Positions 8,122 to 27,940 of a DNA stretch of 64,000 nucleotides are shown piece after piece. Each line of letters opens with the position of its first letter. The first letter of the stretch is position 1. The notes beneath the pieces are model-generated. The model saw only the letters and a program-made list of their open reading frames with translations. It ran no database searches and was not told the DNA's origin. The position numbers were made by a program, and so were the translations under genes. Source of the stretch: a virus. The stretch covers positions 1-64,000 of the IMG/VR virus record IMGVR_UViG_3300030450_002944; one strand, given 5' to 3'.

Positions 8122-8157
8122 ATCCCCTACTCGAATAAAATTGGGTAGGGGATTTTT
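8122..8157 (+). terminator. intrinsic terminator ending the late head operon
   Basis: ATCCCCTACTCGA...TTGGGTAGGGGAT followed by a T-run. Confidence 0.8.
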
Positions 8158-8615
8158 ATATGGTTTACTTGACTGGACTAAATATGATACAATTTAAATA
8201 TGAATTATATGAGAAGAAATATTTTATTGGACTTGACTTGATTAGGTTTAATATGATAGACTATATAAGAAGTGTATAAATTAGTAGAGGAGTAGATATT
8301 GAGTTTCAGTAATCCTGTTTCAGCATTATTTTGGATAATGGTACTAGGTTTAATATGTAGCATATCAGAGGGGTGTGTGGTAATATGAGAGAAACAATTT
8401 TAAGATATGGATTTATGGTAATTATATTTATCATAATATTGGGAGTAATTAAAATATGAGTGAAGAAATAAGAAAGGCACTAGATAGTGTAGATACTTTA
8501 GCAATATGGGATATATGTGGAGAAGAAGCATTAGAATTAATAAGTGAAGAAGTATTGCGTGAATTAGCATATGAGATTTGTATACGAGATGGATATACAG
8601 TAGAGGAGATTACAA

Positions 8616-8804
8616 ATGAATGAGTTGAATAAAAAAGAGTGGAGAATACTTTTAGATAATTATTTAGATTGCCCTAGATCTACTAGACTTAAATTCATTA
8701 AAATAATGATTAGTATAGCAGATAAACAAAAACAGGGAGAAATAATTGATCGAAATACTATTGCAGATACATTACAAATATTATTTAAGGGGATAAGCAA
8801 ATGA
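8616..8804 (+). CDS. early hypothetical protein
   Basis: SD GAGGAG; overlaps the next start. Confidence 0.6.
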   Translation: MNELNKKEWRILLDNYLDCPRSTRLKFIKIMISIADKQKQGEIIDRNTIADTLQILFKGISK

Positions 8805-9349
8805 CCGATTTAATAGATATGAGAAAAGATAGTATAGCATATAGAACTTGGGATAATGTAGGTGTTTACAGATATAGTGTTAGTACAAATACTACATTAA
8901 AAGGATTTCTATTACATAGACCTGAATATTTTGAACAGGTAAGAAAACATGAGGAATTTACAACCTTTGATTTAACAGATAGAGCAAAGGGAGATATAAA
9001 TACTTTTGTTGATTACTTTAAAATGTGGGTAAATGACTATGACAATAGGCATAACTTTGGTGGACACCCTGACGATTGGCACAAACTAGATAGGATAAAT
9101 GAGGTGGAATTACATGGAGAAGATATTGAAGTAACGAATGAAGAAATCTTTAATGAAGCAATCGATAATAGATATGATAATCATATCACTATAAATTTTG
9201 ATATGATAAGTGGTATAAATGGGGAAGTTGGATTTCACACTATGCCTTTCTCTGTTGAAATTTCTATATTCAATATCCTAAGTAGAACAGGAGATTGGTG
9301 GAACTTATGTAAAGATAGTCTACAAGATTGGTGGTTTGATAATGATTAA
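8801..9349 (+). CDS. early hypothetical acidic protein
   Basis: 182-aa ORF in a coupled operon. Confidence 0.65.
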   Translation: MTDLIDMRKDSIAYRTWDNVGVYRYSVSTNTTLKGFLLHRPEYFEQVRKHEEFTTFDLTDRAKGDINTFVDYFKMWVNDYDNRHNFGGHPDDWHKLDRINEVELHGEDIEVTNEEIFNEAIDNRYDNHITINFDMISGINGEVGFHTMPFSVEISIFNILSRTGDWWNLCKDSLQDWWFDND

Positions 9350-9738
9350 GAAGATATTAAGTCAATGGTTTGAACCTACATCAACAAAGCAATATCAGTT
9401 TTATCGTGATGGTATAACTGATGCTTTGCTTCATGGTCGTAGAGATGAGAAGAAATTAGATGAGTTCTTCTTTAGCCATTTTTATAAAAGAGGATATGAC
9501 TTTGGTATGTGGTTGTGGAATGAACAAGATGAAGATGCTAAAGATGAGTAATTTAATGGAATATATGATACAGATTGCAGATCAGATCCGAGAACTACAG
9601 GAAGATGCAGATGGTAAGATGGAAGTCATATTAAAAGAGATTGCCCTAATTCAAATCAAATTACATGAATTAGATGAAAAGATTAATAAATAGAGTATAA
9701 TAGTATATATGTATAAAACAAGAAAGTAGGTATAAAAT

Positions 9739-10317
9739 ATGGAAAGACACCCTGAAGATGAAAATGTTTCTAGTTCGACTTCTTTTCTACAAGAGGGAGA
9801 AAGTAAAATTATTTCATTAAATAAGAATGAATGTCTATTCTTAGATGATTGCTTTACAGTTATTATTGATGGTAGAGAAATGCAAGGATTGACAACATTA
9901 AGAAACATATCCTCTACTGCGAGTGTTCCTGTTACAGTTGATTTAATTCAGAAAATAGGTAGAGCAGTATTGTTTACTACTGATAGAAACAATGGTGGAA
10001 AAGAAGCATTAGTTGAAGTAGATGAAACAGACTTACTTGCATTAAGAGAAGTGGCTCAAAGTTATGTTAAGATGGAGGGAGAAGCAGTTGGAGTAAATTT
10101 AAAGAGGAAAATTCTATCTTTATTATTAGAGAACAGTTATGCACAAGAGGTTAAGAAGCAGAAAGATTATAGATATTGGTTAAGAACATTGAACCAAATT
10201 GCTCCTAGAAAGCATTTTGATCAACATGAATGGACTTACAATAGTAAAGAAAGTTATGATGAGATGTGGGAGAAACGAGCATCTAAGGAGAACAAAGGAG
10301 AAGATGGAAGTAAATAA
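9739..10317 (+). CDS. hypothetical protein
   Basis: 192-aa ORF preceded by an AGTATAAT element at 9694. Confidence 0.65.
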   Translation: MERHPEDENVSSSTSFLQEGESKIISLNKNECLFLDDCFTVIIDGREMQGLTTLRNISSTASVPVTVDLIQKIGRAVLFTTDRNNGGKEALVEVDETDLLALREVAQSYVKMEGEAVGVNLKRKILSLLLENSYAQEVKKQKDYRYWLRTLNQIAPRKHFDQHEWTYNSKESYDEMWEKRASKENKGEDGSK

Positions 10318-10537
10318 TATTAATCTTATAATAATTGCTTGGACATCTATCATTGTTACACTTGCAACATTCGTATTAACATTCATTAATTATAGAATTT
10401 TAATGGTAACATTGGATATTTCTCGTCAAGCAAAAGCAACGAGAAAAGAATTACAAAAATCAAATATGATAAATAAAGATATTAAAAGATTTATTGGTGG
10501 TCGCTGATGACTATCTTAAATATATTAATTTCAGTAG

Positions 10538-10564
10538 GGGACTTGACAGTCCCTTTTTCTTTTT
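10538..10564 (+). terminator. terminator whose hairpin contains the -35 box of the next promoter
   Basis: GGGACT-TGAC-AGTCCC then TTTTTCTTTT; TTGACA at 10543-10548. Confidence 0.7.
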
Positions 10565-10607
10565 GCTATAATATCATTAAGTCAATAATTTACAAGTAGG
10601 AGTAGAG

Positions 10608-10859
10608 ATGAGTTACGAACATAATGAACTAAAAGAAAAAGATAAGTATGGGGATACTAAGGAATATGAATTTATATTTTCAGTTCCATGCTACATGAAT
10701 TATACCATAGTAGCAGAGAGTGAAGAACAGGCTAGAGAAATACTTGAAAATGATGGTATTGAAATTGATGGCGAATGGATAGATTGTCCTGATGGGGATT
10801 TATCTATAGAAGCCGAAGATTATGGAGATGCAGATCTAATAGAACAGTTGGAGATATAA
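10608..10859 (+). CDS. small acidic early protein
   Basis: SD AGGAG; first gene after the promoter. Confidence 0.65.
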   Translation: MSYEHNELKEKDKYGDTKEYEFIFSVPCYMNYTIVAESEEQAREILENDGIEIDGEWIDCPDGDLSIEAEDYGDADLIEQLEI

Positions 10860-11074
10860 TGAGTAAAATAACACGAAAACAAAAGTACGAAACAATACTT
10901 GAATGGTGGTTAGATGGTTGGCTAGACTCACATCACGATATCAGTATACTTACTGATGAATTGATAAGGTTGCATACAACAGAGGAGATACGATTGTACG
11001 AATATAGTGATGATCAATTAAATGATGAATACGAAGAAGTAATGAAGCAACAGAAAGATTTGGGGTACGAATAA
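10859..11074 (+). CDS. small acidic helical protein, paralog family A
   Basis: ETILEWWLDGW...TDEL...YSDDQLNDEYE, similar to 11374..11583. Confidence 0.65.
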   Translation: MSKITRKQKYETILEWWLDGWLDSHHDISILTDELIRLHTTEEIRLYEYSDDQLNDEYEEVMKQQKDLGYE

Positions 11075-11186
11075 TTGGATCTAAGTAAATACGAACCGAA
11101 GATAGAACTAGCAGATCAGTATGAGAAGATTGAGGAATGGTTCTGTGATGAATGTAATGCTGACCAAGTATATGTTGGAGATGTAA

Positions 11187-11384
11187 ATGGACTTTAGCGA
11201 AGATAGAGAAACTTGGGTAGAGGAACTTATAGATAATTATAAAGGTTCTTGGGCATATTCAACTAAGGATCAACTCATAGATGAATTATCTATGGTTTAT
11301 TTAGAGGGGTTGACAGGGCTTAGACATATGAGTTATAATGAATTAGAAAGCGAATTAGCAAACTATAAGGAGAATGATGAGTAA
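11187..11384 (+). CDS. small acidic helical protein, paralog family A
   Basis: EELIDNY...LIDEL...GLRHMSYNELESE. Confidence 0.6.
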   Translation: MDFSEDRETWVEELIDNYKGSWAYSTKDQLIDELSMVYLEGLTGLRHMSYNELESELANYKENDE

Positions 11385-11583
11385 ACTTGATAGAGATGAC
11401 ATGATTGAAACTATATTAGATTATTGGCAAGAGGGTTGGTATGATGGCGACCAAAGTGATGTGATTGATGAGTTAAGAGGATTGCACAATGGTAGCGAGA
11501 AATCACTTGACAAATGGTCAGATAGTGATATAAAAAATGAATATGAAATAGCAGTTAAATTCTTAGAGGAATTAGAGGATTAA
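11374..11583 (+). CDS. small acidic helical protein, paralog family A
   Basis: ETILDYWQEGW...IDEL...WSDSDIKNEYE. Confidence 0.65.
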   Translation: MMSKLDRDDMIETILDYWQEGWYDGDQSDVIDELRGLHNGSEKSLDKWSDSDIKNEYEIAVKFLEELED

Positions 11584-11584
11584 T

Positions 11585-11968
11585 ATGGAAGAAGATATAA
11601 AACAATATAAGATTGACCTAGCGAATAAAATAGAGGATATCCTAAGCAGTCTTGATGAGCATAAGTTTAATGACGATAGAGTATATCCTATACTTATTAC
11701 TACTCTATTAGAGGATAGTTATGGAGAAGTCTTTTGTAGTGGCACATCTACTGATGATGCGTGGTTTACATTCTTAGATAATGTTGAAAGAGAAGAAAAT
11801 TTTATAAAGGACATGGGAATAGATAATTATCATGCGTTGTTAGACATTAAACCTTATGAATATGACCACGAACTACAGGGTAAATTAATAGACCTATATT
11901 GTTTCATGTTTAACTTAGAATGGGATTTCATTTATTCTGCATGGGATTTAAAGGAGCAAGAAGAATGA
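11585..11968 (+). CDS. acidic early hypothetical protein
   Basis: ORF with SD. Confidence 0.6.
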   Translation: MEEDIKQYKIDLANKIEDILSSLDEHKFNDDRVYPILITTLLEDSYGEVFCSGTSTDDAWFTFLDNVEREENFIKDMGIDNYHALLDIKPYEYDHELQGKLIDLYCFMFNLEWDFIYSAWDLKEQEE

Positions 11969-12100
11969 GTAGCACATTAGAAAAATTTATTGAGAGTGAA
12001 ATTCCTGAAGATGTAATATGGAGAAACAAGATGATTGAACTTGTTATCAAAGCATATGAATTAGGGCAAGTTACCAAAGCATATCAATTATTAGGAGAAG

Positions 12101-12454
12101 ATGATGAATAATTTAGAAGATGAATTGGAAAATTTTATGGAGAGTAATCAGTATAGGGAACAACCTAAAGTAGTAGAAGAAGAAGTAAGAGATTGTGAGT
12201 TCAGGGTTTATGGTATATCTAATACAATAGGTTTAGAGAAAGATGTAGTTAATATGTCTGATGATGAGTGGGTAGAAGAAGCAGAGCAGTTTGGATACAT
12301 TTCAACACTAGATACTTTTATGCACAATGTTAATAAAGGCATAATAGCCAAAGACCATTCTAACCTACAATTTAGAGTAGTACCTGTTGGGTATTATGAT
12401 AAACAAGTTGATGTAGTACCTAAAAGTAAACTACACTACATAATAAGGGATTGA
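12101..12454 (+). CDS. early hypothetical protein
   Basis: MSDDEWVEEAEQFGYISTLDTF motif; coupled ORF. Confidence 0.6.
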   Translation: MMNNLEDELENFMESNQYREQPKVVEEEVRDCEFRVYGISNTIGLEKDVVNMSDDEWVEEAEQFGYISTLDTFMHNVNKGIIAKDHSNLQFRVVPVGYYDKQVDVVPKSKLHYIIRD

Positions 12455-12497
12455 CACGCATATCTTTAATATGTTATAATTTAATTAAAGGAGAATA

Positions 12498-12761
12498 ATG
12501 ACAAAACGAGAAAAAGAATTACATAAAGATTTTGCAGAGATTTTAACTAAACTACATGAAGTAACAGGAGTAGTAGGAGAATTTTCTGATAGCACAATCA
12601 GAAGTTGGCTAGATGATTTATGGAACGATATAGAAGAAATGATGGCAAAGCATTTAGGATATACATTAGAAGATATGTCATATGAAGAATGGCAAGTAGA
12701 AAAAGATGATTTGAGAAAAGAAATTAAAGAATTACAAAAGCAAGTGAAGATAAAAGCATGA
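12498..12761 (+). CDS. early hypothetical protein
   Basis: Own promoter and AAGGAG SD. Confidence 0.65.
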   Translation: MTKREKELHKDFAEILTKLHEVTGVVGEFSDSTIRSWLDDLWNDIEEMMAKHLGYTLEDMSYEEWQVEKDDLRKEIKELQKQVKIKA

Positions 12762-12855
12762 AAAAAGATTTAGTATTAGTAACATTTATGTTGTTTGCAG
12801 TTATGTTACTATGGACAGTAACAGAAACAATCAAGAAAGTATTTGAGTTGACATT

Positions 12856-13149
12856 ATGAAAGTAAGAGAATTAGTAGGAGAATTGTGGAAACTTGATCCT
12901 GAAGCCGAAATAGGTTTCGCATTAACCTTACCACAAAGCGAGTGGGATAAAAATCGTAATAATCCAATTACAGACGATTTGGATATTACATTAGAAGATT
13001 GGATACACATAGATCGAAACTATACCGAACTCGAAGATGACTACTTTGCTTTGATGAGATTTAGAGTAGACGAAAGTCAAATTGATATGCTACCTACTTT
13101 TCAAGACGAGGGAAGAATGAATATAGATTATAGAAAATTAATGAATTAG
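12856..13149 (+). CDS. early hypothetical protein
   Basis: MKVRELVGELWKLDPEAEI N-terminus is common in small phage proteins. Confidence 0.6.
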   Translation: MKVRELVGELWKLDPEAEIGFALTLPQSEWDKNRNNPITDDLDITLEDWIHIDRNYTELEDDYFALMRFRVDESQIDMLPTFQDEGRMNIDYRKLMN

Positions 13150-13212
13150 GGTATTGACTTACCTCTTTCAAATATGTTATAATCGTAGTATAGTAAATAC
13201 AAAAGGAGTATT

Positions 13213-13542
13213 ATGCAAAACGAAAGTGTAGAAACACTAAACAATGAAATAGAAACTAGATTAATACAGATAGGTAGCGAACTAGCAGAATTTAGAGGAA
13301 TGAAAGCAGACTTAGAAAGGGCTATCAAGAAAATGAGTAGTCAAATAATTGAGATGTTAGATACTCTTGCTATTACTACTTATGAAGATGATGAGGTTAA
13401 GATATCTAAACAAGATGTAAGTAGGACTGTGATTGATAACAATGTAGCAAAGGTTGTTATCCCTAAGAAGTACCTAAGTCAAATTATGAAAACCACAGAG
13501 TTTTCTAAAGTCTTAGTGAAAGAGAAAGAGGTAGTAGTATAA
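13213..13542 (+). CDS. coiled-coil early protein (possibly Gam/Gp157-like)
   Basis: N-terminal coiled coil followed by a beta region; own promoter. Confidence 0.4.
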   Translation: MQNESVETLNNEIETRLIQIGSELAEFRGMKADLERAIKKMSSQIIEMLDTLAITTYEDDEVKISKQDVSRTVIDNNVAKVVIPKKYLSQIMKTTEFSKVLVKEKEVVV

Positions 13543-13819
13543 TGAGTGGAAGTGATGATTTATATGAAGTTACCATTACAACTTATACTGAAAAAGATTG
13601 GGAGTATGTCTTGGATAAAGTCCAAGAACTCGAAAGAAATGGTTACTTTGATGAACTAAGTATAAATGGAATGACAGTCTTTTCAGATATAGTCTATTAG
13701 TCTGACACCATATAGGTTATTAGAACGCCTGTAAGACGCTTTAAATGGCTTATATGCAGTCTTTTTAGAGGGTATTGACATTCCCTAACCAAATATGTTA
13801 CAATTAATTTAACAATAGA

Positions 13820-14068
13820 ATATAGAAAGTTGTTGGGAACATTTATGAAATCTCGATCAATGGATTAAATGTGAGTGGCAGAACTTTAGGTCGGTAACCT
13901 AGATTGCAGAGGACAAACGAACTGACGAACAAGTGTTTGAGGTCGTGATGAAGTCGTATGCGTTGAGTATAAATAAAGAAGGTGTACGAGAAAGTACAAA
14001 TACTACTCTTAGAGCATCAGAGGAACGAAAAATCCTATTTCCTCTCTCTTACCCAACTACTTCTATAT
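13820..14068 (+). ncRNA. candidate structured RNA 1 (about 250 nt)
   Basis: Follows promoter 13775; 13820-13837 pairs with 14052-14068; several internal hairpins. Confidence 0.6.
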
Positions 14069-14087
14069 CTTATAAAGGAAAAATTAT

Positions 14088-14301
14088 AGTGGAAAAAGAT
14101 CTACCAAAACACAAATATAGAATAGTGGTGGAAAAAACTTTAGAATACCACTTCGATATTCTAAGTGAAGATGTTAAAGATATTCAAAATAAACAACAAA
14201 TAATAAAAATGATTGAACTTGGTAAGTATGAATTACCTAAAACGCAAATAGAACACATTAGAGTAATATCTTGTGATGATAGTCAAGAATTGAGTATATA
14301 A
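14088..14301 (+). CDS. hypothetical protein (probable start at the GTG near 14089, not 13933)
   Basis: AAGGA SD lies just after the RNA 1 stem. Confidence 0.45.
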
Positions 14302-14303
14302 AT

Positions 14304-14642
14304 ATGAACAGAACTGAGTATAAATATTATGGTGTCCCAAACAAATCCGAGATATTAGAAAGTATTTTTGTAGCAAGTGATTGGATCGAAAAAGCCAAAG
14401 AATATAAAATGGTTTGGACTGAAAAATATTGGAATAAAATTAGACATACTATCAATCCTAACGAAACTAAAGTTACAAAGATAGAAGTGTGGAAAGATTT
14501 AGCGAAAAACAAAGAGGATATAATATACGCTATAACTGAAAGTCATAGGTATTGGTCTGATAATGGAGAATATATTTTTAGAATGGGTGGAATACCTAAA
14601 GAAGAATGGTATACATCTATAAAGCAAAATAAGGAGAAATAA
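14304..14642 (+). CDS. early hypothetical protein
   Basis: 112-aa ORF. Confidence 0.55.
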   Translation: MNRTEYKYYGVPNKSEILESIFVASDWIEKAKEYKMVWTEKYWNKIRHTINPNETKVTKIEVWKDLAKNKEDIIYAITESHRYWSDNGEYIFRMGGIPKEEWYTSIKQNKEK

Positions 14643-14806
14643 TGGATAGATATGAATTTGTAGACGAAATAGCACAAATACTAATAGATGAGAATAGTAT
14701 GGATTTGTTTGATATAGTGGTTCAGGGTTTGGACACTTGGTCAACTGCTGACTTACAAAACCTAGCAGAAGAATATTCATTAGTATTGTCTGTTGACAAT
14801 GCTTAA
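14642..14806 (+). CDS. small acidic protein, distant member of paralog family A (not in ORF track)
   Basis: MDRYEFVDEIAQILIDENSMDLFDIVVQGLDTWSTADLQNLAEEY; AAGGAG SD. Confidence 0.55.
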   Translation: MDRYEFVDEIAQILIDENSMDLFDIVVQGLDTWSTADLQNLAEEYSLVLSVDNA

Positions 14807-14850
14807 TTAAATATGTTACACTTTTAAGTAACAACGAATTTGGAGATCAA

Positions 14851-15936
14851 ATGGATAAAACACAATTTAAATTAGCAGAACGAAAACAGTTTAGAGGGGA
14901 TCTATCTAACATGATGAATGTAGTCAATGATTACATCAACATTGATAGACAAGATTTCTTGCAAAGTGCATATACTGAATTTTCTCCTGATGAAGATTGG
15001 CTCAAACACTATGCCAAAAAAGAGGGAGAATTTTGTGCAATAGGTTGGTTAGCAATAGCCAAAGACATTGATCTACCTAGCTTTACTCATAACCTAGAAC
15101 CAACAGGATATGTTTATAAAGGTAAACAGATGCAGAGTAAATATGGAACAGATGAGAATGGCGATATGATTAAAGTCGGCGAAAAAGAAGTAGTTCATGA
15201 AGTACATGAAAGAGCCTGTGAATGTGAATTACATACTCAACAAGATGATGAAGATAGAGAAACTTGGGTAGAAGATGACTACTTAGATTTTGGTGTAACT
15301 TATGCAGATACAGAGCATATACCTGTTCCCGAAGTAGATGATGATATTTCAAACAATACATATAAAGAATACTTTTTAAAATCTACTCTTGATTTAGAGA
15401 GTGTATCTAGCAGAGCATATGTAGATACTAAAAGATTTGTTAAAGACTTACTCTTGAATTATAGAGTACCAAATGCAATCTTAGAAGATATACAGTTGAT
15501 AAATGATAATCCCACTTTTACACGATTACATTCAATGTTGGGAGATTGTGGATCAGACTATGCTTATGATGAGTCATTTGCAGTATCCGAAGATATGTAT
15601 GGTAAAAGAAGTGGGCAATGTATTCACTTATTCACAGAAACTAATCCTGTTAGTTCCTGTATCAATGGATCATCTTATGGCTATCTAAAAGATAAAAAGA
15701 TAGGTAGTTGGAAGAAGAATGTTGTAGACTATTTAAAGAATACTCAAAGTTTTGCTTGGGCAGACGAAACAGAATTTGAGAAAATGATGGATTGTAATTA
15801 TCAAGCAAACGCAGTAAATTCTATTGATATGGTAAAAGCATATCTAAATCTATTATTAACGAATGATGATTATGCAGATTTCTATTTGCGTGGCGAAATG
15901 AGAACAGAACTAGATGATGAGATAAGTGGGACTTGA
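14851..15936 (+). CDS. large acidic early hypothetical protein
   Basis: 361-aa ORF with its own promoter. Confidence 0.7.
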   Translation: MDKTQFKLAERKQFRGDLSNMMNVVNDYINIDRQDFLQSAYTEFSPDEDWLKHYAKKEGEFCAIGWLAIAKDIDLPSFTHNLEPTGYVYKGKQMQSKYGTDENGDMIKVGEKEVVHEVHERACECELHTQQDDEDRETWVEDDYLDFGVTYADTEHIPVPEVDDDISNNTYKEYFLKSTLDLESVSSRAYVDTKRFVKDLLLNYRVPNAILEDIQLINDNPTFTRLHSMLGDCGSDYAYDESFAVSEDMYGKRSGQCIHLFTETNPVSSCINGSSYGYLKDKKIGSWKKNVVDYLKNTQSFAWADETEFEKMMDCNYQANAVNSIDMVKAYLNLLLTNDDYADFYLRGEMRTELDDEISGT

Positions 15937-15989
15937 CATAGGTATTTCATTTATGCTATTATCTAATTAACGAAACTAATTAAGGAGAA

Positions 15990-16610
15990 ATGATTATGCC
16001 AAATTGGTGTGAGAATACATTAGAGATATGGGGAGAAGAAGAACACATGAAAGAGTTTTATGACCTCTTTGGTGGGCAAGACAAGATACAAGAGAACTTT
16101 TGTTTTGATATGATTACCACTATGCCCAAAGAATTAGATGGGACACGCAGTCCACAGAAAATCGTACCTCAACATAAACTTGATTTATTTGAGAAATTTA
16201 AAAAAGAGATAGATCTTAATTCAACAGAGTTGGATTACCAAAGTAAAACAATAATGGATAAATCTGATAATAAAGAATTTTCTAAGTTTGAAAGTGTTAA
16301 TGAGATTGTAAAGGATTTCTTTTGGGATCACGATCAAGCAATTACTCTAGAAACATCTGATAGACTTAAATCAGAATATGGATCTGATAATTGGTATGAT
16401 TGGAGAAACAAGCATTGGGGAACTAAGTGGGACATCAATGGAGAGGTTGGAATAAATGACATTCATGATGAGGGTTGTACTTTAAACTTTAATACTGCTT
16501 GGAGTCCACCTCAACCAATCGTATTCAAGTTACAGGATATGTTCCCTGAACTAACTGTATATGGTGGATATATTGGAGAGGGCTATGAGTTCGCAGGAGT
16601 ATTTGAATAA
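15990..16610 (+). CDS. DUF1281/YubB (Api92-like) ferredoxin-fold protein
   Basis: MPNWCEN, WYDWRNKHWGTKWD and FNTAWSPP signature motifs. Confidence 0.8.
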   Translation: MIMPNWCENTLEIWGEEEHMKEFYDLFGGQDKIQENFCFDMITTMPKELDGTRSPQKIVPQHKLDLFEKFKKEIDLNSTELDYQSKTIMDKSDNKEFSKFESVNEIVKDFFWDHDQAITLETSDRLKSEYGSDNWYDWRNKHWGTKWDINGEVGINDIHDEGCTLNFNTAWSPPQPIVFKLQDMFPELTVYGGYIGEGYEFAGVFE

Positions 16611-16741
16611 GACAATGGAGAAGTGGGAAAAAAGAGATAAGAAACGAGATAGTAAAAAACGATTTAAAGATTATAAGAATAATATTAAGTCGATTACTAC
16701 GCTTTGGGATATTACTACAAAACCTAAAAGAAAGAAAGATT

Positions 16742-16990
16742 ATGAAAACGATAGCGAAGAATAGCCACACTTGTACAGAGTGTGGGAATAAAAAGAATAG
16801 CAGACATAATGCAAAACAAATATTCCATATAAAAACAAAGTGTGTTAGAAAGTCAAATTTTGTATTTGATAAAAGACATAAGATACAGGATAGATTTAAC
16901 TGTGTTTATATCTGTAAAGATTGTGGTGGCGAGAAATTATTTTTAGATATGACTAAGAAGAATATGCCAAAGTCAGAAGATGAAGAATAG
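16742..16990 (+). CDS. small zinc-ribbon protein
   Basis: CTEC...CKDC. Confidence 0.5.
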   Translation: MKTIAKNSHTCTECGNKKNSRHNAKQIFHIKTKCVRKSNFVFDKRHKIQDRFNCVYICKDCGGEKLFLDMTKKNMPKSEDEE

Positions 16991-17056
16991 GGTATTGACA
17001 TAGCCTATTCCAATATGATATAGTAAAGGTAACAACAGAAACGAAAGTATAGAACA

Positions 17057-17554
17057 ATGACTTTTAATAAAGCAAAAAACAAGTCAACAATTTGGCACAA
17101 CGAGGGACATCAATTAAGTGATTGGGCAAAGTCTGATTATAATTTAACTGTGACTCATAACAATTATGCAATTACAGATAATGGCAATCCTACAACTATT
17201 GAGGGTTTAGAAGAAGAATATAACCGAGTTGGTTGGCAGTCTTGTAATGAATGTTCTTATGATCCAAATGAACCATTTATTGAATGGAGATTGGTATCTG
17301 ATGACTATGATGAAGATGAACCTGATGATAGTGCATGGAACTTAGAAACTGTTGGTCATATCGGAATAATCTTTCCTATGCAAAGAACATTTCCAATCGA
17401 GGAATTTAGTTGTTTAAGTGGTGGTGGAAAAGTATGTTATTTATGCTTAGATACAATTACTTACAAATGGGCAGTTGATGAGGGTTGTCCACATATTCAA
17501 ATTAAAGAAAATGGTAAATGGGTAACTCAATACGATAGCAGTTTTTTTGGTTAG
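17057..17554 (+). CDS. early hypothetical protein with CxxC pairs
   Basis: CNEC...CYLC; own promoter. Confidence 0.6.
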   Translation: MTFNKAKNKSTIWHNEGHQLSDWAKSDYNLTVTHNNYAITDNGNPTTIEGLEEEYNRVGWQSCNECSYDPNEPFIEWRLVSDDYDEDEPDDSAWNLETVGHIGIIFPMQRTFPIEEFSCLSGGGKVCYLCLDTITYKWAVDEGCPHIQIKENGKWVTQYDSSFFG

Positions 17555-17619
17555 GGTATTGACTTAACTATATCAAATATGTTATATTGATTATAACAAC
17601 GAAAACTAAAGGAGAAAAT

Positions 17620-18054
17620 ATGGCTCTAACTTGGGACATAACAAAAGTAGATTTACCGAAAGAGGTAATATATGTAAAGAATGATGAGGGAGAAGAAAAC
17701 CTAAATCCAATTACTTGGTCAATTATTTGGTCAACAATCTTTCTTGGTATGAATGAACTTACCGAGAAGAACCTAAATGATTGGCACAGACGAATGAAAC
17801 AATTAGAAATGTGTGGAATGGGATTGCTTGGAGAAAAAGATAGTGATGTAAAACGTATGCCTAATCTAAGAGAACTCAAATTACACATTGGTTTAAAGAC
17901 AAATGGTTCTTTGATTAAAAAAGGTTCAGCATGGAATAGAGAATTAGTAAGACAAATTAATATGACTACTGATGAGATTGTTAAAAAAGAAAGAACAGAA
18001 TTAGCAGAAGTCGAACAAGTTGTAATAACTGATGATGAGGAAAATGATGAATAA
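17620..18054 (+). CDS. early hypothetical protein (start probably ATG 17620)
   Basis: AAGGAG SD before MALTWD. Confidence 0.65.
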   Translation: MALTWDITKVDLPKEVIYVKNDEGEENLNPITWSIIWSTIFLGMNELTEKNLNDWHRRMKQLEMCGMGLLGEKDSDVKRMPNLRELKLHIGLKTNGSLIKKGSAWNRELVRQINMTTDEIVKKERTELAEVEQVVITDDEENDE

Positions 18055-18265
18055 AGATTTATCAGAAATCAAAGTAGATGATGTAGAATTTACTAACTTA
18101 GATGATGAGATTTACGATAATTTATCGTGGTATTGTGATATGAATTTAGTAGATGAAACACCAAGATTAAAAAATAAGTTCTACGAAGTTAGAAACAAGA
18201 TGATTGATTTTATTGAAAGTGTAAGAGCAGAACAAGTAGAGGGCAAAGATGAAAGTAATTATTGA
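18032..18265 (+). CDS. small acidic early protein
   Basis: Coupled ORF. Confidence 0.55.
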   Translation: MMRKMMNKDLSEIKVDDVEFTNLDDEIYDNLSWYCDMNLVDETPRLKNKFYEVRNKMIDFIESVRAEQVEGKDESNY

Positions 18266-18599
18266 TTTAGAAGAGGATACTATCTACGCAGAAGATGATG
18301 AACAAGTAGAAGAAGAAATAATAATAGAAAATCCTACTGCTGAAAAGATTAAGAAATTAGTAGACTCTGGAATACCTGTTTATTGGTCTAATTGTAATTA
18401 TGAAATTATAAAAGACGAACATACTTACATGATTAAAGCAAAAACAAAAGAAGATGTTAGTCATCTTGAGGGTTATATCTTTACACTTATGGATAGTACA
18501 GGGTTCGACAGAGGTATTCGTTACTTAGACTTAACTGACAGAGCAGACAAATTATTAAATACACATGAGAAATATTTTTATATGAGAGGGCAAAGATGA
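18249..18599 (+). CDS. early hypothetical protein
   Basis: IKKLVDSGIPVYWSNCNYEIIKD motif recurs in phage early genes. Confidence 0.6.
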   Translation: MKVIIDLEEDTIYAEDDEQVEEEIIIENPTAEKIKKLVDSGIPVYWSNCNYEIIKDEHTYMIKAKTKEDVSHLEGYIFTLMDSTGFDRGIRYLDLTDRADKLLNTHEKYFYMRGQR

Positions 18600-18796
18600 A
18601 TAAAGAAAACGAAATGGATTTACATCAAGCGATTGAGATTATTGAAATGGAAGAAAATCCAACAGAAGATGAATATAGATGTGCTTGGCAATTTTTAGTA
18701 GATAAAGGACACGCTTGGAATTTACAAGGTTGGTATGGTAGAACTGCTATGAGTTTAATTGAAAGTGGATTTATACAGGGGAGAATAACAGGATAA
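18596..18796 (+). CDS. conserved small phage early protein
   Basis: AWQFLVDKGHAWNLQGWYGRTA is a widespread family motif of unknown function. Confidence 0.7.
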   Translation: MNKENEMDLHQAIEIIEMEENPTEDEYRCAWQFLVDKGHAWNLQGWYGRTAMSLIESGFIQGRITG

Positions 18797-19083
18797 TGAG
18801 TGAAGAAGAACTAACCATACAGAAACTACATTGGGATAATATTAAAAAAGGTTATCCACATATTGCAGATGATGATGACAATAATGGATATGTCTATGGC
18901 ATTGAATATAGTATAGGTTTGGGAGATACAGATCAACAATGGTTTAAGTCTGAAACAGAGCGAGATAGAATGGTAGAAGAAATGCTTATGGATATTTACC
19001 TAGAGATAGAAGAACCATATCAAGTCAATCCATTCGTAACAAATTTAATACAAGAACAAATGGATAAAGGATTATTAAGATGA
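18796..19083 (+). CDS. early hypothetical protein
   Basis: Coupled ORF. Confidence 0.55.
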   Translation: MSEEELTIQKLHWDNIKKGYPHIADDDDNNGYVYGIEYSIGLGDTDQQWFKSETERDRMVEEMLMDIYLEIEEPYQVNPFVTNLIQEQMDKGLLR

Positions 19084-19292
19084 TAGTAGATGTAAGAAGT
19101 GCTACAAGTGGATATATAGAAATTGGAGATTGGGTAGTTTATGTTGATGATAGTACAGGAGAAAGAATTATAAATTCTTGGGATAAGACTGACATAAGAC
19201 TTAACAATGAGGGGATAAAGTGTGGGGAAATAAAAGAACATACCTCAATGGGTACTAGATTAATAGACTACAAGAAAACAGGTCATGGATAA
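19080..19292 (+). CDS. early hypothetical protein
   Basis: Coupled ORF. Confidence 0.55.
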   Translation: MIVDVRSATSGYIEIGDWVVYVDDSTGERIINSWDKTDIRLNNEGIKCGEIKEHTSMGTRLIDYKKTGHG

Positions 19293-19524
19293 ACTATGTA
19301 GACAATTAAATAATGGTTTAACAATATTAGATGAAAACGAATTATCTGATAAGGATATAAACAACTGTGATAACTGTGGGGAATTAGACTATTATCCTAA
19401 TCTTATATGGGATAGTGATGAACTATGGTGGAGTAGTCAATATCTTTCAGATATGTCTGCTCAAAGTAAACTGAACGCTTTATGTGAAGAATGTTTTGTT
19501 CAATTAAAAGGTAGTAAAAAGTAG
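19285..19524 (+). CDS. small zinc-finger protein
   Basis: CDNC...LCEEC. Confidence 0.55.
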   Translation: MDKLCRQLNNGLTILDENELSDKDINNCDNCGELDYYPNLIWDSDELWWSSQYLSDMSAQSKLNALCEECFVQLKGSKK

Positions 19525-19584
19525 GGTATTGACTTATCTATTTTGATTATGCTATAATGATTATAGAAACTATAAAAGGAATAT

Positions 19585-20025
19585 ATGTTAAAAGATATAG
19601 AAATAAATACTAAAAGTTTAATCACTTTAATACAGGATATCTATGATACATTTGATGCTCTTGAAAAAGATAATGAGAAAGAAAACCTCAAATGGACAAT
19701 AGAGGGAAAATCAAAATCTCAACAAGCATTGATTATGACTTCTTTCTTTGAAGATATACAGAAGAAGAAAGGATTATCTGATCATTTAGTTAAGAGTTTA
19801 CAGAATGATAAATTCAAACTTACTAGAAAAATAGATAAATTGAAGAATGAAATCGCAGTATTGGAACAAGCCTACGATAATATTCAACATAAATATCTAA
19901 GCGTGGGGAGAGGAATAGATAGTACACATAGTGTATTAAAGAGATTAGCATTTGATAATAAACATCAAGTCTTTAAAGATGATATGTTAGTAAAGTTATG
20001 GAAGATTAAATCAGATTGGTATTGA
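19585..20025 (+). CDS. coiled-coil early protein
   Basis: Own promoter; heptad pattern. Confidence 0.6.
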   Translation: MLKDIEINTKSLITLIQDIYDTFDALEKDNEKENLKWTIEGKSKSQQALIMTSFFEDIQKKKGLSDHLVKSLQNDKFKLTRKIDKLKNEIAVLEQAYDNIQHKYLSVGRGIDSTHSVLKRLAFDNKHQVFKDDMLVKLWKIKSDWY

Positions 20026-20209
20026 AATGCGTGGGGAAAGAGAAATAGCCAAAGACTATGACTATAACATAGTATACTGTCAATGTAATAAACCTTTATA
20101 TATAGATGATATAGATGAAGAAAACAACTTGATAGCAATATGTGAAGATACAGATTGTGAGTATTGACTTACCTTTTATCAATATGCTATAATGATTATA
20201 GATAAAAAA

Positions 20210-20310
20210 GTAATTGATTAGAAACAATAAAGATACGAATGATTGAGTGTTGAGCAATGTATAGTTCATTACTAATCAACTCAACTGATCGCTAGTCGCT
20301 AATCAATTAC
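20210..20310 (+). ncRNA. candidate structured RNA 2 (about 100 nt, rod-like)
   Basis: Follows promoter 20164; perfect 12-bp GTAATTGATTAG/CTAATCAATTAC closing stem; inner TTGAGTGTTGA/TCAACTCAA stem. Confidence 0.6.
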
Positions 20311-20507
20311 ACTAATAAATAAGAGGTAAAAGACTATGAAAATGAGTAGAGGTTTAATGGAAATTAGTATAGATGAATTTCTTGCAGATAGAAAACCATG
20401 CGAATTACTATCAGAGTTTGGATTAGAACATAAACATACAACTGATTGTGATTTAATTGATGAAATAGTATATCAAGCGTATCTGTTAGGGGAGAGGAAT
20501 AGATAGT

Positions 20508-20801
20508 ATGAAAAAATATAGAGTAATATGCAATGAGGGAACAACATTTCTTTCAAGAACATGGAAGAATGGGGAAACAGAAGAAGAAATATATGAAATT
20601 TTTGAAGATTTCTATGAAACAGAGAATATGGGATTTGATGAAGAAATAGATGACTATATCCCAATGCCAAGAGAGTTAGATTATATTAGGGATCTATGGA
20701 ATGTAACCATAGAAGAAATAGAAGATCCTAATTACTCTGATGAAATAGGGGATTTATCTGAATGGGAATATAATAGTGGTAAAGTATCTTTATATAGATA
20801 G
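20508..20801 (+). CDS. very acidic small protein
   Basis: High E/D content. Confidence 0.6.
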   Translation: MKKYRVICNEGTTFLSRTWKNGETEEEIYEIFEDFYETENMGFDEEIDDYIPMPRELDYIRDLWNVTIEEIEDPNYSDEIGDLSEWEYNSGKVSLYR

Positions 20802-20915
20802 GGTATTGACTTACCTATATACGATATGCTATAATAGATATATAAGGTAAATAAAGATCGATATACAGAAATAGAGTAATAAATATATAGTAAATAAAAG
20901 GTAGGTATTGAATAT

Positions 20916-21404
20916 ATGGCTAAAACTAAGTTAAGAAAGCGAAAGCAATCTAATGGTACTTATAACCTAGAATATGACCCAATTCCAATGGATAGGGTAC
21001 GAAAACAGGGAATTGAGTACATAAAAGCAACAGAATTGGTTAATGGAACTATCTTTGAGGGTAGGAAGATACCAAGTAGAATAGTATGCTTTTATAATAT
21101 AAAAGACCAAGAGATATCTTGGAAGTATAATGAGGGGAAAGCAGAGGAAGTATGTAATGGGAATACAGACTATTGTTATCTAGTTAGAGATGATATGTTC
21201 TGTCCTAATGGATACTATCTATGTCTACCTCATAATCATATAGTGGATTGGAGAGTATCAGGATTGGATTATCACTTTCTCTCCCCACAGGAATTTGAAG
21301 AAGATGAGAAAATGACTATGGAAGAATATGGGAAAATACAGGAAAAAGACCATATTACTTCGTATGAGAATATGAAAGATAAATTTGATTATTTAAGTAA
21401 ATAA
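20916..21404 (+). CDS. early hypothetical protein
   Basis: 162-aa ORF with its own promoter and terminator. Confidence 0.65.
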   Translation: MAKTKLRKRKQSNGTYNLEYDPIPMDRVRKQGIEYIKATELVNGTIFEGRKIPSRIVCFYNIKDQEISWKYNEGKAEEVCNGNTDYCYLVRDDMFCPNGYYLCLPHNHIVDWRVSGLDYHFLSPQEFEEDEKMTMEEYGKIQEKDHITSYENMKDKFDYLSK

Positions 21405-21416
21405 CTTACCTTTTAT

Positions 21417-21452
21417 AAGGGGATAGGTTTTATGGTTTTTCCCTATCCCCTT
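21417..21452 (+). terminator. hairpin abutting the next -35 box
   Basis: AAGGGGATAGG...CCTATCCCCTT. Confidence 0.65.
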
Positions 21453-21489
21453 GACTTAGGTATAGCGAATATGTTATAATAATATTATA

Positions 21490-21593
21490 GGGTATTTAAG
21501 TATGCGAGGGTTGTCAGGGAAATTAGTAGTGAATGAACTGACCACAGAATGTGTTAATCCAACTACCCATACTTAACCACCCCCCCTTTTTTT
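21490..21593 (+). ncRNA. candidate structured RNA 3 (about 100 nt, standalone)
   Basis: Follows promoter 21451 with no ORF; TTAAGTATG/CATACTTAA stem, GTCAG/CTGAC and CAC/GTG hairpins, then a T-run. Confidence 0.6.
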
Positions 21594-21755
21594 CCTAAAG
21601 GAGTTATATGATATATCAGCAGCCACCACCACAGGAGAGGAAATAGGTATATATAAGGAATGGAAAAGGAGAGGAAATGGAGAAGGAAAGGGGTGGGAAA
21701 TGGAAAGGAAGGAAGGGGTCAAATGTCGCATAACTCCCCATGTGGTAGGGGGTAC

Positions 21756-22235
21756 TTAAAAGCACTCCCCTGATTGTTGCAATTCAAATATACTAGGTCC
21801 ACGATCTCTATGACGTATTAAGCTCTTATAGGCTTCTTGCAATCCCCATTCATAATAGAACGATTGACCAAATGACCTTTTGCACCACACAGTTAAACCT
21901 AGCATATCGTCAATTATAATTTCTCCCACTTCTCCGAGCCAATGTGCCAAATGATCAGAGATAAGAAAATATTGCATTACTTCTCCCTGTTTCCATTCAA
22001 TAAGTGCTTCTTTAAACTCTGGCTCTTCCATGTCTGGTAGGTTTTCAGGGTCATATCCCTGTCTAAAATCTTCTATATCTTCTGATGTTATAGCGTTTTC
22101 GGTTGCTATATATAAACTCTCGTAACTGTCGTCTTGCTCAAAGAACCTTTCGGCTACTTCGTTTACAAGATATAGTACGTTCTTATCACACCATTTCTTA
22201 AAGTCTTTATCTTCTGCTAATTTGTCGCTATTCAC
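21756..22235 (-). CDS. conserved phage early protein
   Basis: EVMQYFLISDHLAHWL...GE...GLTVW...GQ family pattern; two tandem promoters upstream. Confidence 0.7.
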   Translation of the reverse strand: MNSDKLAEDKDFKKWCDKNVLYLVNEVAERFFEQDDSYESLYIATENAITSEDIEDFRQGYDPENLPDMEEPEFKEALIEWKQGEVMQYFLISDHLAHWLGEVGEIIIDDMLGLTVWCKRSFGQSFYYEWGLQEAYKSLIRHRDRGPSIFELQQSGECF

Positions 22236-22498
22236 TTTTTACTCCTTTATTAGTTTTTACTTATATATCAATAATAGCATATATAGGGGGGGTAGGTCAA
22301 CCCCTGATATATCCTATAACTCCACCTACTATTATTATATCATATAGGGAAGGGGTCTGTCAAGGGAAAAGGGAAGGAAGGGAAAAGGGAAGGAAGGGGA
22401 TAGGGGGACTGGAGTTATGCGATTATGGGTAGTGGCTCAAAGAGAGAGCCACCACACAATTACGCCAACCACTATTAAGATTTCCAATCAATCCCCTT

Positions 22499-22753
22499 TT
22501 ACCACATAGAGTCAAATGCTTTAACCATGTTAGCCTGTACTTCATACCTAGATGCGTCTACCTGAACGTCTTGACCATCAATTATTACATAATCAATATC
22601 ATGAGCATAGATACTACCAATTTCTGTAGCATAGCCATACACTTTAGCCATTCTGATATTACCTTTTTTGTTGTCCATCATCTCAAACTTCCAACCATTT
22701 TTTTGGTATCCGACTGTCCCTTTTTTTATGTCATTAGGTTCAATAGTTTTCAT
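22499..22753 (-). CDS. conserved small phage early protein
   Basis: NDIKKG...MMDNKKGNIR...EIGSIYAHDI motif. Confidence 0.7.
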   Translation of the reverse strand: MKTIEPNDIKKGTVGYQKNGWKFEMMDNKKGNIRMAKVYGYATEIGSIYAHDIDYVIIDGQDVQVDASRYEVQANMVKAFDSMW

Positions 22754-22808
22754 AGTTCCTTTTTGCTAGTTTTTTCTTTATGTAATAAGTATATCATATT
22801 TGATCACT

Positions 22809-22973
22809 CTATGTCAACTCAATGTTTACAATTTCTTTGTCTGTTAATTTAATATTGTGTTGCTCATAAAAGTTATCTTTTACATTTTGGATAAATTCTT
22901 TTTTGGTTTCTCCATAATTATTTATCGCAAATGATAATTCTATTTCACAGAACCATTCTTTTTCTTCACTCAT
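22809..22973 (-). CDS. small hypothetical protein (54 aa, not in ORF track)
   Basis: AAGGAG SD and own promoter; MSEEKEWFCEIELSF... Confidence 0.6.
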   Translation of the reverse strand: MSEEKEWFCEIELSFAINNYGETKKEFIQNVKDNFYEQHNIKLTDKEIVNIELT

Positions 22974-23054
22974 TTTCGTACTCCTTTATTTAAGTATAGC
23001 ATATTTGATCATTCTATGTCAATAGGGATATATCATATAACTCCAAAAAAAATA

Positions 23055-23371
23055 AATTTAACTAAGCGTGGCGAAGGTGTCAGATTGAATGAAACTCACT
23101 TTCAAACTTAGACTTACGATATCATGATATGATCGTGCTACATCAGGCTACAACTTCGGCTTTCTATCCTAGGCTAGTGGCGGAAGTGATACATCTGGCT
23201 CAACGTCAGGGAACAGAGGGATCTGCAAGATACTCTATTTCTATTCGTTTATCTGAACTTGTACTAAAAGTTCGTTAACAATTAAGTACAACTGATAGTT
23301 TGACAATAACCTTCAAAAGTTTCTGTACAGGTTGCGAACCTATGAGCCTACTTAACCACGCTTATTAAATT
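23055..23371 (-). ncRNA. candidate structured RNA 4 (about 315 nt)
   Basis: No ORF; 16-bp closing stem 23055-23071/23356-23371; long-range GGCTCA/TGAGCC; several hairpins; U-run after the stem on the minus strand. Confidence 0.7.
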
Positions 23372-23376
23372 GTTAA

Positions 23377-23485
23377 ACAAGATTGATGATCGGTTGTTAT
23401 AGACCGAATTTAATCTGTCCACATTCCCTACTTCGTTGTATTGGTAAAATGTTATTCACATTCATCGTTACTTCCTCAACCTTGT
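23377..23485 (-). ncRNA. candidate structured RNA 5 (about 110 nt), co-transcribed upstream of RNA 4
   Basis: Starts at the predicted TSS; ACAAGGUUGA/UCAAUCUUGU stem includes a G-U pair valid only on the minus strand. Confidence 0.65.
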
Positions 23486-23616
23486 AATATAAGTATAGCA
23501 TATTAAAGAGTGGTAATGCAATACCTTGATATATCATATAACTCCTCTTAAAAAAAGAGGGCAGGTGGGGGAAGGGGAAAAATGAAAAAACCCCAAACCC
23601 CTCTTGTACCTACCTA

Positions 23617-23853
23617 TTACATTTCCTCAGCCATTGCCCAAAGGATAGGCTCAACTTCACTAGATATCTGTAAATGGAAGTCGCAACACTTTAACCTGTC
23701 GTTCATTTGATCTTTGGAAAAGATTAGAATATCCTTTATGGAAAAGGCTTTCCTATCTTTACAATCAAACCATTGTCGCCAATACCCTTTATCAGAGTCC
23801 ACTTCATAGTGAACATTCTCGTTTCTATATTTAAAAGTTCCTTTAGCTTTCAT
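23617..23853 (-). CDS. early hypothetical protein
   Basis: SD and downstream G/C hairpin terminator (23551-23612). Confidence 0.6.
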   Translation of the reverse strand: MKAKGTFKYRNENVHYEVDSDKGYWRQWFDCKDRKAFSIKDILIFSKDQMNDRLKCCDFHLQISSEVEPILWAMAEEM

Positions 23854-23854
23854 C

Positions 23855-24046
23855 TTAACCTCTATTCATTTCTATATATTTTTCATTTAGTTCTGTTCTT
23901 ATTACATCGCAATCATCAGAACACACAACATTATTTCCATAACATTCTGTATGATCTTTTTGATAGTTTTTCCACTCTAAAATTTCATCATCTGTTAGAG
24001 TGAAAGACTTAGGGTGTTTATGTGAGTTGCTAATCCAAGATATCAT
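23855..24046 (-). CDS. early hypothetical protein
   Basis: Promoter 24076-24105 and AAGGA SD. Confidence 0.6.
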   Translation of the reverse strand: MISWISNSHKHPKSFTLTDDEILEWKNYQKDHTECYGNNVVCSDDCDVIRTELNEKYIEMNRG

Positions 24047-24092
24047 TTTATTCCTTTACTTGTTTCTATACTTATATTATAGCATATTTAAT

Positions 24093-24191
24093 GTAGGCTT
24101 GTCAAGTGTGTCTTGTTTAGATTTACATATAACGACTTGCAAGAGCTTTCAGGATCAGGGAATACTTACTCAACCCCACTTGACTACCTAC
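24093..24191 (-). ncRNA. candidate structured RNA 6 (about 100 nt)
   Basis: Starts at the predicted TSS of promoter 24199-24228; GUAGG-UA-GUCAAGUG pairs with CACUUGAC-AAG-CCUAC; no ORF. Confidence 0.55.
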
Positions 24192-25375: not shown

Positions 25376-25379
25376 TTTA

Positions 25380-27929: not shown

Positions 27930-27940
27930 TTATTACTTAC

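Follow-up and report, generated by a model that had tools for sequence, protein, structure and literature searches.

A sharply bounded early block in an uncultured marine phage genome is purged of at least a dozen short sequence words

Introduction

Bacteriophages T5 and BF23 are vulnerable to restriction and CRISPR (clustered regularly interspaced short palindromic repeats) systems only through their first-step-transfer DNA; sites in the remainder of the genome do no harm (PMC10644984; bioRxiv 10.1101/866236). For marine Autographiviridae, only the motifs in the first-injected, or leading, region decide restriction sensitivity, and the authors of that work predict that avoidance in one region would be useful only to a phage whose genome ends are fixed (PMC12455610). 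In plasmids, the parallel case is one of single-stranded transfer (as cited in PMC12455610). Here, we describe a 13.4-kb block of early genes, from 8174 to 21618, from which many short words have been purged in the virus record IMGVR_UViG_3300030450_002944 of IMG/VR (81,307 bp, CheckV completeness 99%; hereafter G000). The stretch analyzed, called the window, comprises bases 1–64,000 of this record. A previous reading of the letters alone (the sequence-only reading) had noticed the loss of two words, AGCT and GAAGG, from about 8160 to 21600 and had attributed it to restriction of DNA that enters the cell first.

The G000 block resembles its T5 and BF23 counterparts in several respects: it is a block of ~10–13 kb of small early genes, it carries host-type promoters, and a repeat-rich region follows it. 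In both cases, selection disfavors sites within the region but not beyond it, although in G000 this is a sequence signature only and is on a much larger scale, involving at least 12 words. G000 differs from T5 in that no homologues of A1, A2, or dmp were found (30 open reading frames [ORFs] searched against PHROGs and 10 against Pfam) and in that it has an 18-bp box repeat but no DnaA-box array. In T5, the first-step-transfer region belongs to a direct terminal repeat of about 10 kb, transfer pauses until the pre-early proteins have been synthesized, and the injection stop region contains ordered DnaA boxes and large inverted repeats. G000 is, moreover, an unrelated marine phage with an SU10-type capsid protein. 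T7-like phages, including the marine Murciavirus, have an early region that is read by the host polymerase, as is predicted for G000, and that has most of its genes on one strand; their leading region varies greatly and is home to anti-defence genes (PMC12455610). The strong host-type promoters of the G000 block point rightward, and the T7-like early region adjoins a genome end. In T3, an enzyme that cleaves S-adenosylmethionine (SAM) is encoded among the earliest genes (PMC7877911). Unlike these phages, G000 has no detected Ocr or single-subunit RNA polymerase and has a sigma factor of its own instead; its block is far longer and is followed by a leftward block, and its SAM lyase-like gene is not the first gene. 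Classical genome-wide restriction-site avoidance follows the same selective logic, and G000 shows it for GGCC, GCGC, and CCWGG, as other lineages do for other words. The main signal in G000, in contrast, is regional and sharply bounded.

G000 is an uncultured marine tailed phage with no close cultured relative. Near-identical DNA occurs, at the level of contigs, in 20 marine metagenome runs from 15 studies, and IMG/VR holds 441 related contigs. A megablast of the purged segment (8160–21600) against cultured phages returned zero matches, and no cultured phage has a DNA polymerase more than 29% identical to that of G000. The capsid protein is a member of Pfam family SU10, with >1,100 metagenome relatives; its matches to cultured viruses are weak and confined to haloarchaeal viruses. 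The principle is already known from T5; what sets the G000 block apart is how sharp its edges are, how many words are involved, and how their loss is tiered. It ranks with the cleanest cases, judged from sequence only, in which restriction pressure bears on one part of a phage genome. With it, the rule established for T5, and of late for T7-like phages, reaches an abundant marine lineage without a cultured member, and it illustrates that a test for site avoidance across a whole genome can overlook the strongest signal.

Results

Depletion of at least 12 words in one block

Outside the purged block, sites of a 14-word set occur at ~12 per 500 bp (~25 per kb), whereas the few residual sites inside it lie at 13978, 14314, 15079, 17853, 18270, and 18367. 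AGCT, of which the window holds 271 copies, is found only once (15079) between 7589 and 21821, and GAAGG/CCTTC only once (13978) between 7864 and 21682, in agreement with the single copies that the sequence-only reading had noticed. When the AGCN tetramers of the segment were sorted by their last base, 68 ended in A, 11 in C, 14 in G, and 1 in T. The same bias is visible in codon choice. The sequence-only reading had held that Glu-Gly pairs are spelled GAG-GGN in the early genes and GAA-GGN in 1–8000, and this proved correct: of the 20 pairs in the early genes, 19 are GAG-GGN and one (at 13978) is GAA-GGN, while all 13 pairs in 1–8000 use GAA. Outside the early genes as a whole, GAA precedes Gly 83–84 times and GAG 12 times (70 GAA and 12 GAG from 29.1 kb onward). 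Over all Glu codons of the early genes, there are 285 GAA and 104 GAG (27% GAG), so that the bias at Glu-Gly pairs is highly significant (Fisher p 5.5e-11). Glu codon choice in the early genes thus depends on the context of a following Gly.

To obtain a codon-aware expectation, synonymous codons were permuted within the segment in 200–500 shuffles, preserving the proteins and the segment's codon use. AGCT was observed once against 19–20 expected and GAAGG once against 20–22, and in neither case was any of the 200–500 shuffles as low. Maximal-order Markov expectations (20.9 for AGCT and 12.0 for GAAGG) agree with the shuffles. Further words behaved in the same way: CCAG/CTGG (2 observed, 26 expected), GAWTC (0 and 19), GGTGA (0 and 16), GGATG (0 and 14), ACGG (0 and 12), CTCTTC (1 and 10), CGATG (0 and 9), GTCTC (0 and 9), CTCAG (1 and 9), and ACGT (1 and 7). 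We then scanned 496 testable 4- and 5-mers without bias, calling a word purged when its observed count was ≤15% of expectation and none of 200 codon shuffles was as low. By this definition 16 of the 496 words are purged in 8160–21600, compared with 0–1 in each of six other tiles, where the sole purged word is CCAGG, itself part of a genome-wide avoidance. GCWGC and CCGG have zero copies in the block as well; they were untestable because the block's codon use already predicts about one copy (0.6 and 1.1, respectively). GGAGG was left off the list of restriction words because it is also about twofold low elsewhere in the genome.

Together, these results confirm that the depletion is real and that it is broader than AGCT and GAAGG, comprising at least 12 words. 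It survives both the synonymous shuffles and the Markov models. The two words named by the sequence-only reading were borne out, but that reading under-saw the extent of the purge, which takes in at least ten further words.

Word specificity and the DNA level of the signal

A depleted block might also be a module recently taken from a wholly purged phage. Alternatively, its base composition or codon use, selection at the RNA level, or a tendency to avoid words that look like ribosome-binding sites might produce the pattern secondarily. The block is indeed lower in G+C (31% vs. 34–38% elsewhere), several purged words are rich in purines and similar to ribosome-binding sites, GGAGG is about twofold low genome-wide, and codon use by itself accounts for GCWGC and CCGG. 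However, the codon-aware and Markov models reject composition, and the purge is specific to words: the one-mismatch neighbors of the purged words have median observed/expected ratios of 0.97–1.26, so that neither a gradient in composition nor a broad aversion to words like ribosome-binding sites can account for it. Where both orientations have enough expected copies, both are purged, with CCAG at 0 against 10.3 expected and CTGG at 2 against 16.1, and likewise GAATC at 0 against 9.7 and GATTC at 0 against 9.2. The 2.6 kb of intergenic DNA in the block contains 1 site where 40.5 are expected. Protection therefore covers the whole duplex, and the signal lies at the DNA level.

Many of the words are classical Type II or IIS recognition sequences, with known prototypes in REBASE: AGCT for AluI, GAWTC for TfiI, GGTGA for HphI, GGATG for FokI, GTCTC for BsmAI, CTCTTC for EarI, CCTTC for HpyAV/Hin4II, CTCAG for BseMII/BspCNI, and ACGT for MaeII.

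Edges of the block and transcription landmarks

The edges of the block are sharp to ~250 bp. On the left, the last sites of the 14-word set are at 7924 and then 8173, and on the right, the first site is at 21619, in keeping with the boundaries near 8160 and 21600 that had been proposed earlier. The CTGG at 8173 sits inside the −35 region of the first promoter and is the only site of the set left in the stretch of the first two promoters (8164–8262). Both edges match transcription landmarks (Table 1), namely a terminator and the first promoter on the left and a convergent junction on the right. The placement of the right edge at the first 18-bp box and a purine tract also held; the first GAAGG sites to return (21682, 21708, and 21712) lie within this purine-rich tract, and G001, a close relative of G000, has a purine tract at the matching junction (10158–10245). 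Purine-only tracts, rich in GGA and GGAA, flank the first leftward gene (21640–21725 and 22362–22400), the longest run being 39 nt.

Table 1. Features of the G000 genome discussed in the text (window coordinates; the last row and part of the 55.8–68 kb row lie beyond the window)
Feature	Position	Strand	Remarks
Head genes	0.1–7.4 kb		
Terminator-like hairpin	8122..8158	+	13-bp stem and T run; ends the rightward late (head) block; conserved in G001
First early sigma-70-type promoters	8164–8194 and 8233–8262	+	−35 TTGACT, TG-extended −10
Purged block	8174..21618		6 residual sites of 14 short words in 13.4 kb
Small rightward ORFs (purged block)	8.2–21.6 kb	+	
Conserved early gene, 192 aa	9739..10317	+	36–70% identity in 17 relatives; near left edge of block
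Near-consensus promoter family, at least 12	10543..21480	+	TTGACA/T, 18 nt, TG-n-TATAAT
Right edge, convergent junction (~21.5–21.75 kb)	21600..21725	+	Last rightward promoter 21451, first 18-bp box 21600–21617, purine tract, leftward gene
Partly depleted block	21619..28650		Mostly leftward single-gene cassettes; intermediate site density
Small leftward cassettes	21.7–27.4 kb	−	
Probable SAM lyase, 101 aa	25070..25375	−	Pfam DUF3574; candidate anti-restriction gene
Tail genes	29.1–55 kb		
Hsp20, phage sigma factor, helicase, primase, polymerase, and recombination genes	55.8–68 kb		
Phage sigma factor	56250..56774	+	Sigma70_r2, E 2.6e-12; downstream of host-type promoter hit 55742
Terminase, ribonucleotide reductase, and portal	68–81 kb		

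The −35 elements of the near-consensus promoter family start at 10543, 12451, 13154, 13775, 14793, 15933, 16995, 17559, 19529, 20164, 20806, and 21451. Genome-wide, the family is confined to 8.16–28.65 kb, with its last member at 28598, except for weaker hits at 43614 and 55742. This confinement, together with the presence of a phage sigma factor, suggests that promoters of the host sigma type mark the early class, and the genes that follow are probably read with the phage sigma factor from another promoter type. The best explanation of segment 8174–21618, as predicted from these elements, is a rightward early transcription block read from host sigma-70-type promoters.

Two small ORFs, both conserved in G001, close the late block just left of the terminator (7796–8117). 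One is Cys-rich, with many TGT/TGC codons, and the product of the other is a short hydrophobic peptide in which a GILGKV unit recurs; this unit gives rise to a 16-nt direct repeat at 8040–8085.

Partial depletion across the leftward block

Depletion does not end altogether at the right edge. From 21.6 to 28.6 kb, AGCT (7 vs. 16.9 expected), GAWTC (2 vs. 8.9), and GGATG (1 vs. 7.7) are still low, while CCAG, GAAGG, ACGT, and ACGG are back at expectation. The same region contains an 18-bp box, GGAGTTATATGATATATC, in 12 copies with 0–1 mismatch, all of them between 21600 and 27414 and none elsewhere in the 81-kb genome. Nine of the 12 are minus-oriented and lie upstream of leftward −35 elements, several only a few bases from the −35 element of a leftward consensus promoter and just after a T run, a layout that looks like an operator for a regulator of the single-gene cassettes.

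This architecture invites comparison with a strict T5-type arrangement, in which the block, perhaps to ~28.3 kb, would lie in a long direct terminal repeat, first-step transfer would halt at the 18-bp boxes and purine tract, and early proteins would restart it. A repeat-rich, gene-poor region does follow the block, there are two oppositely oriented early transcription units, as in BF23 (PMC10644984), AGCT, GAWTC, and GGATG stay low to ~28.6 kb, and a collapsed terminal repeat would explain why assemblies cross the junction at the left edge (see below). We nonetheless consider this arrangement unlikely. The A1, A2, and dmp homologues it calls for were not found among ~30 early proteins, the DnaA-box motif TTWTNCACA has 13 matches in the window against 9.9 expected, with none at the edge and no cluster at 21.4–22 kb, and the operator-like position of the boxes just upstream of −35 elements suggests control of transcription rather than a stop to entry.

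Three tiers of word loss can be told apart: GGCC, GCGC, and CCWGG genome-wide; AGCT, GAWTC, and GGATG to ~28.6 kb; and CCAG, GAAGG, ACGT, ACGG, GGTGA, and others in 8.2–21.6 kb only. It is possible, if doubtful, that one can read from these tiers in what order the DNA enters and which restriction enzymes the host has, in an abundant uncultured marine lineage that is unrelated to T5 and T7 and has polar, staged delivery. If so, entry polarity and host restriction specificities would be readable from sequence alone.

Word sets in related phages

We next compared the block with that of related genomes. In G001 (82,411 bp; major capsid protein 91% identical to that of G000), the purged block measures 11.9 kb and runs from the same terminator to the purine tract, with 9 sites of 13 words vs. 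~183 expected from its genome-wide density. G001 retains 14 AGCT in its purged block. At these positions the orthologous sites of G000 show synonymous or replacement changes, and the lone AGCT of G000 is common to G001, so AGCT loss went further in G000, and it did so in place. L100, L104, and L105 behave like G001. In these four relatives the block is syntenic and has diverged in step with the remaining genome, and a gene of the block occurs family-wide, all of which, with the turnover of AGCT in place, argues against a recently acquired module. With composition already rejected, the explanation by module or by-product is largely refuted, and we regard it as very improbable.

Among distant relatives, which have the conserved 192-aa early gene too, the early parts lack other words: CATCG and GCAGC in L108; CCGG, CATCC, and CCAGA in L118; and GCAGC and CATCC in G005; some distant relatives show little depletion. 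This comparison is one of early vs. late word density, is not codon-aware, and is indicative only. A test for site-free runs has low power on loci of 20 kb, and the promoter matrix, which was built from G000, finds no promoters in the distant relatives. The genome-wide tier shifts in a similar manner. GGCC, GCGC, and CCWGG are absent from the entire 81-kb genome of G000 and also from that of G001; G002 and G003 are without CCGG and GCGC and have CCWGG, and G004 and G005 are without GCGC and CCWGG and have GGCC. Word sets that switch by lineage are what host-specific restriction pressure predicts.

Restriction-site avoidance is thus well supported as the cause of the depletion, because many of the words are recognition sequences, their neighbors are at expectation, both orientations are purged where testable, intergenic DNA is purged, and the word sets vary in relatives. 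The sequence-only reading had pointed to the same cause, and this part of its interpretation is supported.

A candidate SAM lyase in the leftward block

If the DNA that follows the block is to escape restriction, early products might be expected to protect it, and one gene of the leftward block is a candidate protector. Its product, a DUF3574 protein, is probably a SAM lyase. Against the Pfam family S-AdoMet_lyase it scores 24.6 bits, below the cut-off of 28. The structural model (mean predicted local distance difference test [pLDDT] score 95.3) has a ferredoxin-like (PII-like) fold, and its best matches in the PDB are to the phage SAM lyase Svi3-3 (6ZM9 and 6ZNB; E 8.9e-5, template modeling [TM] score 0.64), with PII proteins close behind. 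Svi3-3 has strictly conserved Gly56, Glu69, and Gln104, of which Glu69 and Gln104 bind SAM (PMC7877911). The family-invariant E52 and nearly invariant Q85 of the G000 protein align with Glu69 and Gln104, a profile match that by itself is not significant (E 0.58), whereas G45 and W47 correspond to Gly56 and Tyr58 only in their order. The DUF3574 protein has 350 relatives in a representative library, some of which occur as repeated domains in proteins of 400–800 aa.

Proteins of the purged block

The purged block encodes ~35–40 small rightward ORFs, whose products are mostly acidic (isoelectric point 4.1–5) and belong to no known family. Searches of PHROGs (30 early ORFs) and Pfam (10 of them) assigned no function except for a DUF1281_C match in a 206-aa protein and a weak match of a 109-aa protein (13213–13542) to the Mu Gam-like end-protection proteins (PHROG 253, E 9.5e-4; no match in Pfam). 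The latter match, if real, would fit a linear genome whose ends need early shielding. The gene at 9739–10317 is the only early gene found across the family of relatives; its AlphaFold model has a mean pLDDT of 73.5 and zero fold matches in the PDB. An Atlas search with a 361-aa early protein found nothing above chance. The acidic early proteins and the cassette array lying to their right would be places to seek new anti-restriction functions.

Entry order and genome ends

How might restriction pressure come to be limited to one block? On the best explanation, selection has removed nearly every copy of about a dozen 4–6-bp words from the early block by context-dependent synonymous and some non-synonymous changes, and the cutters of these words would be sequence-specific double-strand DNA nucleases of the hosts, chiefly Type II and IIS restriction enzymes. 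The regional limit would then reflect timing, in that the early DNA would be inside the cell, intact and transcribed, before the phage's counter-defence works. The simplest route would be polar entry from an end just left of 8164, in stages or slow and transcription-driven, with early products neutralizing restriction for the DNA that follows; the SAM lyase-like gene of the adjacent block may be one of them. That the block is first into the cell is plausible but unproven. The layout agrees with it, in that the sharp left edge falls at a terminator with the first host-type promoter just behind it, transcription of the block is rightward, and the residual sites are in its distal half. We favor polar entry because the block bears the sequence signature of the situation in T5/BF23 and in Autographiviridae, and we put the probability of polar entry from an end near 8160, staged or slow, with early products then protecting the remainder, at roughly 0.6. 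The distribution of the residual sites has the same polarity: they lie in the distal part of the block, both in G000 (p 0.034) and in G001 (p 0.010), and site density changes in a single sharp step on the left and climbs in two steps on the right. This polarity fits, weakly, an exposure that starts at the left edge and lessens with distance. Polar entry predicts that virion ends are fixed, with one just left of 8164, and that hosts carry restriction–modification systems for AGCT, GAWTC, GGTGA, GGATG, GTCTC, CCTTC, and CTCAG.

Several observations weigh against this account. The records, that of G000 with its 81,307 bp included, are free of end repeats. The ends of 74 IMG/VR contigs downstream of the capsid gene are evenly spread, with no pile-up at the junction. 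A 22-nt marker ~80 bp left of the junction was found in nine viral and eight metagenome contigs, 16 of them distinct, and all 16 run through the junction and continue at least 689 bp past it. These results fit terminal redundancy or concatemers and provide no positive sign of an end near 8160. As to protection, no known anti-restriction or DNA-entry protein was detected among the early proteins scanned with PHROGs and Pfam. The fully purged block ends 3.5 kb short of the SAM lyase-like gene, for which no counterpart was detected in G001, and a SAM lyase could only relieve SAM-dependent enzymes, not those of the AluI, HphI, or FokI kind. As to the words themselves, we suggest that they are host restriction sites, yet we know of no 4- or 5-bp prototype for CCAG, ACGG, or CGATG. 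Finally, most of the asymmetric words have enough expected copies in the sense orientation only, and selection at the RNA level is for this reason excluded only for CCAG/CTGG, GAWTC, and the palindromes.

Since the assemblies show nothing that points to fixed ends, we also considered that the whole genome enters at once, that only the early block must stay uncut, for as long as its inhibitors or repair functions take to be expressed, and that cuts elsewhere are tolerated or mended by phage recombination. G000 is equipped for recombination, with a UvsX-like recombinase, Cas4-like and SbcD-like nucleases, RuvC, and possibly a Gam-like protein, for which the early Mu Gam-like match (E 9.5e-4) is weak evidence. 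But a single infecting genome has no template for the repair of double-strand cuts, and the ~25 sites per kb of purged words elsewhere would shred it; furthermore, if entry began at random points, as under headful packaging, one would not expect an edge that is sharp on one side and sits at the first promoter (PMC12455610). Entry of the whole genome at once therefore seems decidedly unlikely.

The words could instead be targets of nucleases with which the phage itself, or a co-resident element, destroys host DNA, so that the early block must be immune. G000 carries a staphylococcal-nuclease-like (SNase-like) gene at 29107–29529, but enzymes of the SNase type lack sequence specificity. The PHROGs and Pfam scans of the early block detected neither a restriction-like nor an HNH nuclease, and a single phage is likely to encode far fewer than a dozen specificities. 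Outside the block, moreover, the phage genome is full of these words and would be destroyed too. Although Davison's proposal for T5 A1 (bioRxiv 10.1101/866236) provides a precedent for a nuclease of the phage's own, there is only a slight chance that it applies here. Polar entry thus remains the account that we favor.

Other features of the genome

Zero tRNA genes were found in the 64-kb window and zero Rfam families in 7–30 kb. The large terminase subunit has two matches at 23–24% identity, which are uninformative for packaging mode. The SNase-like gene (E 1.1e-8) opens the long rightward block, with the last early-type promoter (28598) upstream of it, and is directly followed by a gene for a 1231-aa protein (29510–33205) with a PAP2 phosphatase domain (E 3.1e-13), which is odd for a tail region. 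An Hsp20-family gene (55828–56250) lies between the promoter hit at 55742 and the phage sigma factor gene. Beyond the window, a gene adjoining that for the portal (G000 73902–77291; L099 9902–13291) encodes a 1129-aa protein that joins a poly(A) polymerase/CCA-adding head domain to a eukaryotic-type topoisomerase I core, and a Bmp/PnrA-like substrate-binding protein is encoded nearby (G000 78219–79367; L099 14219–15367).

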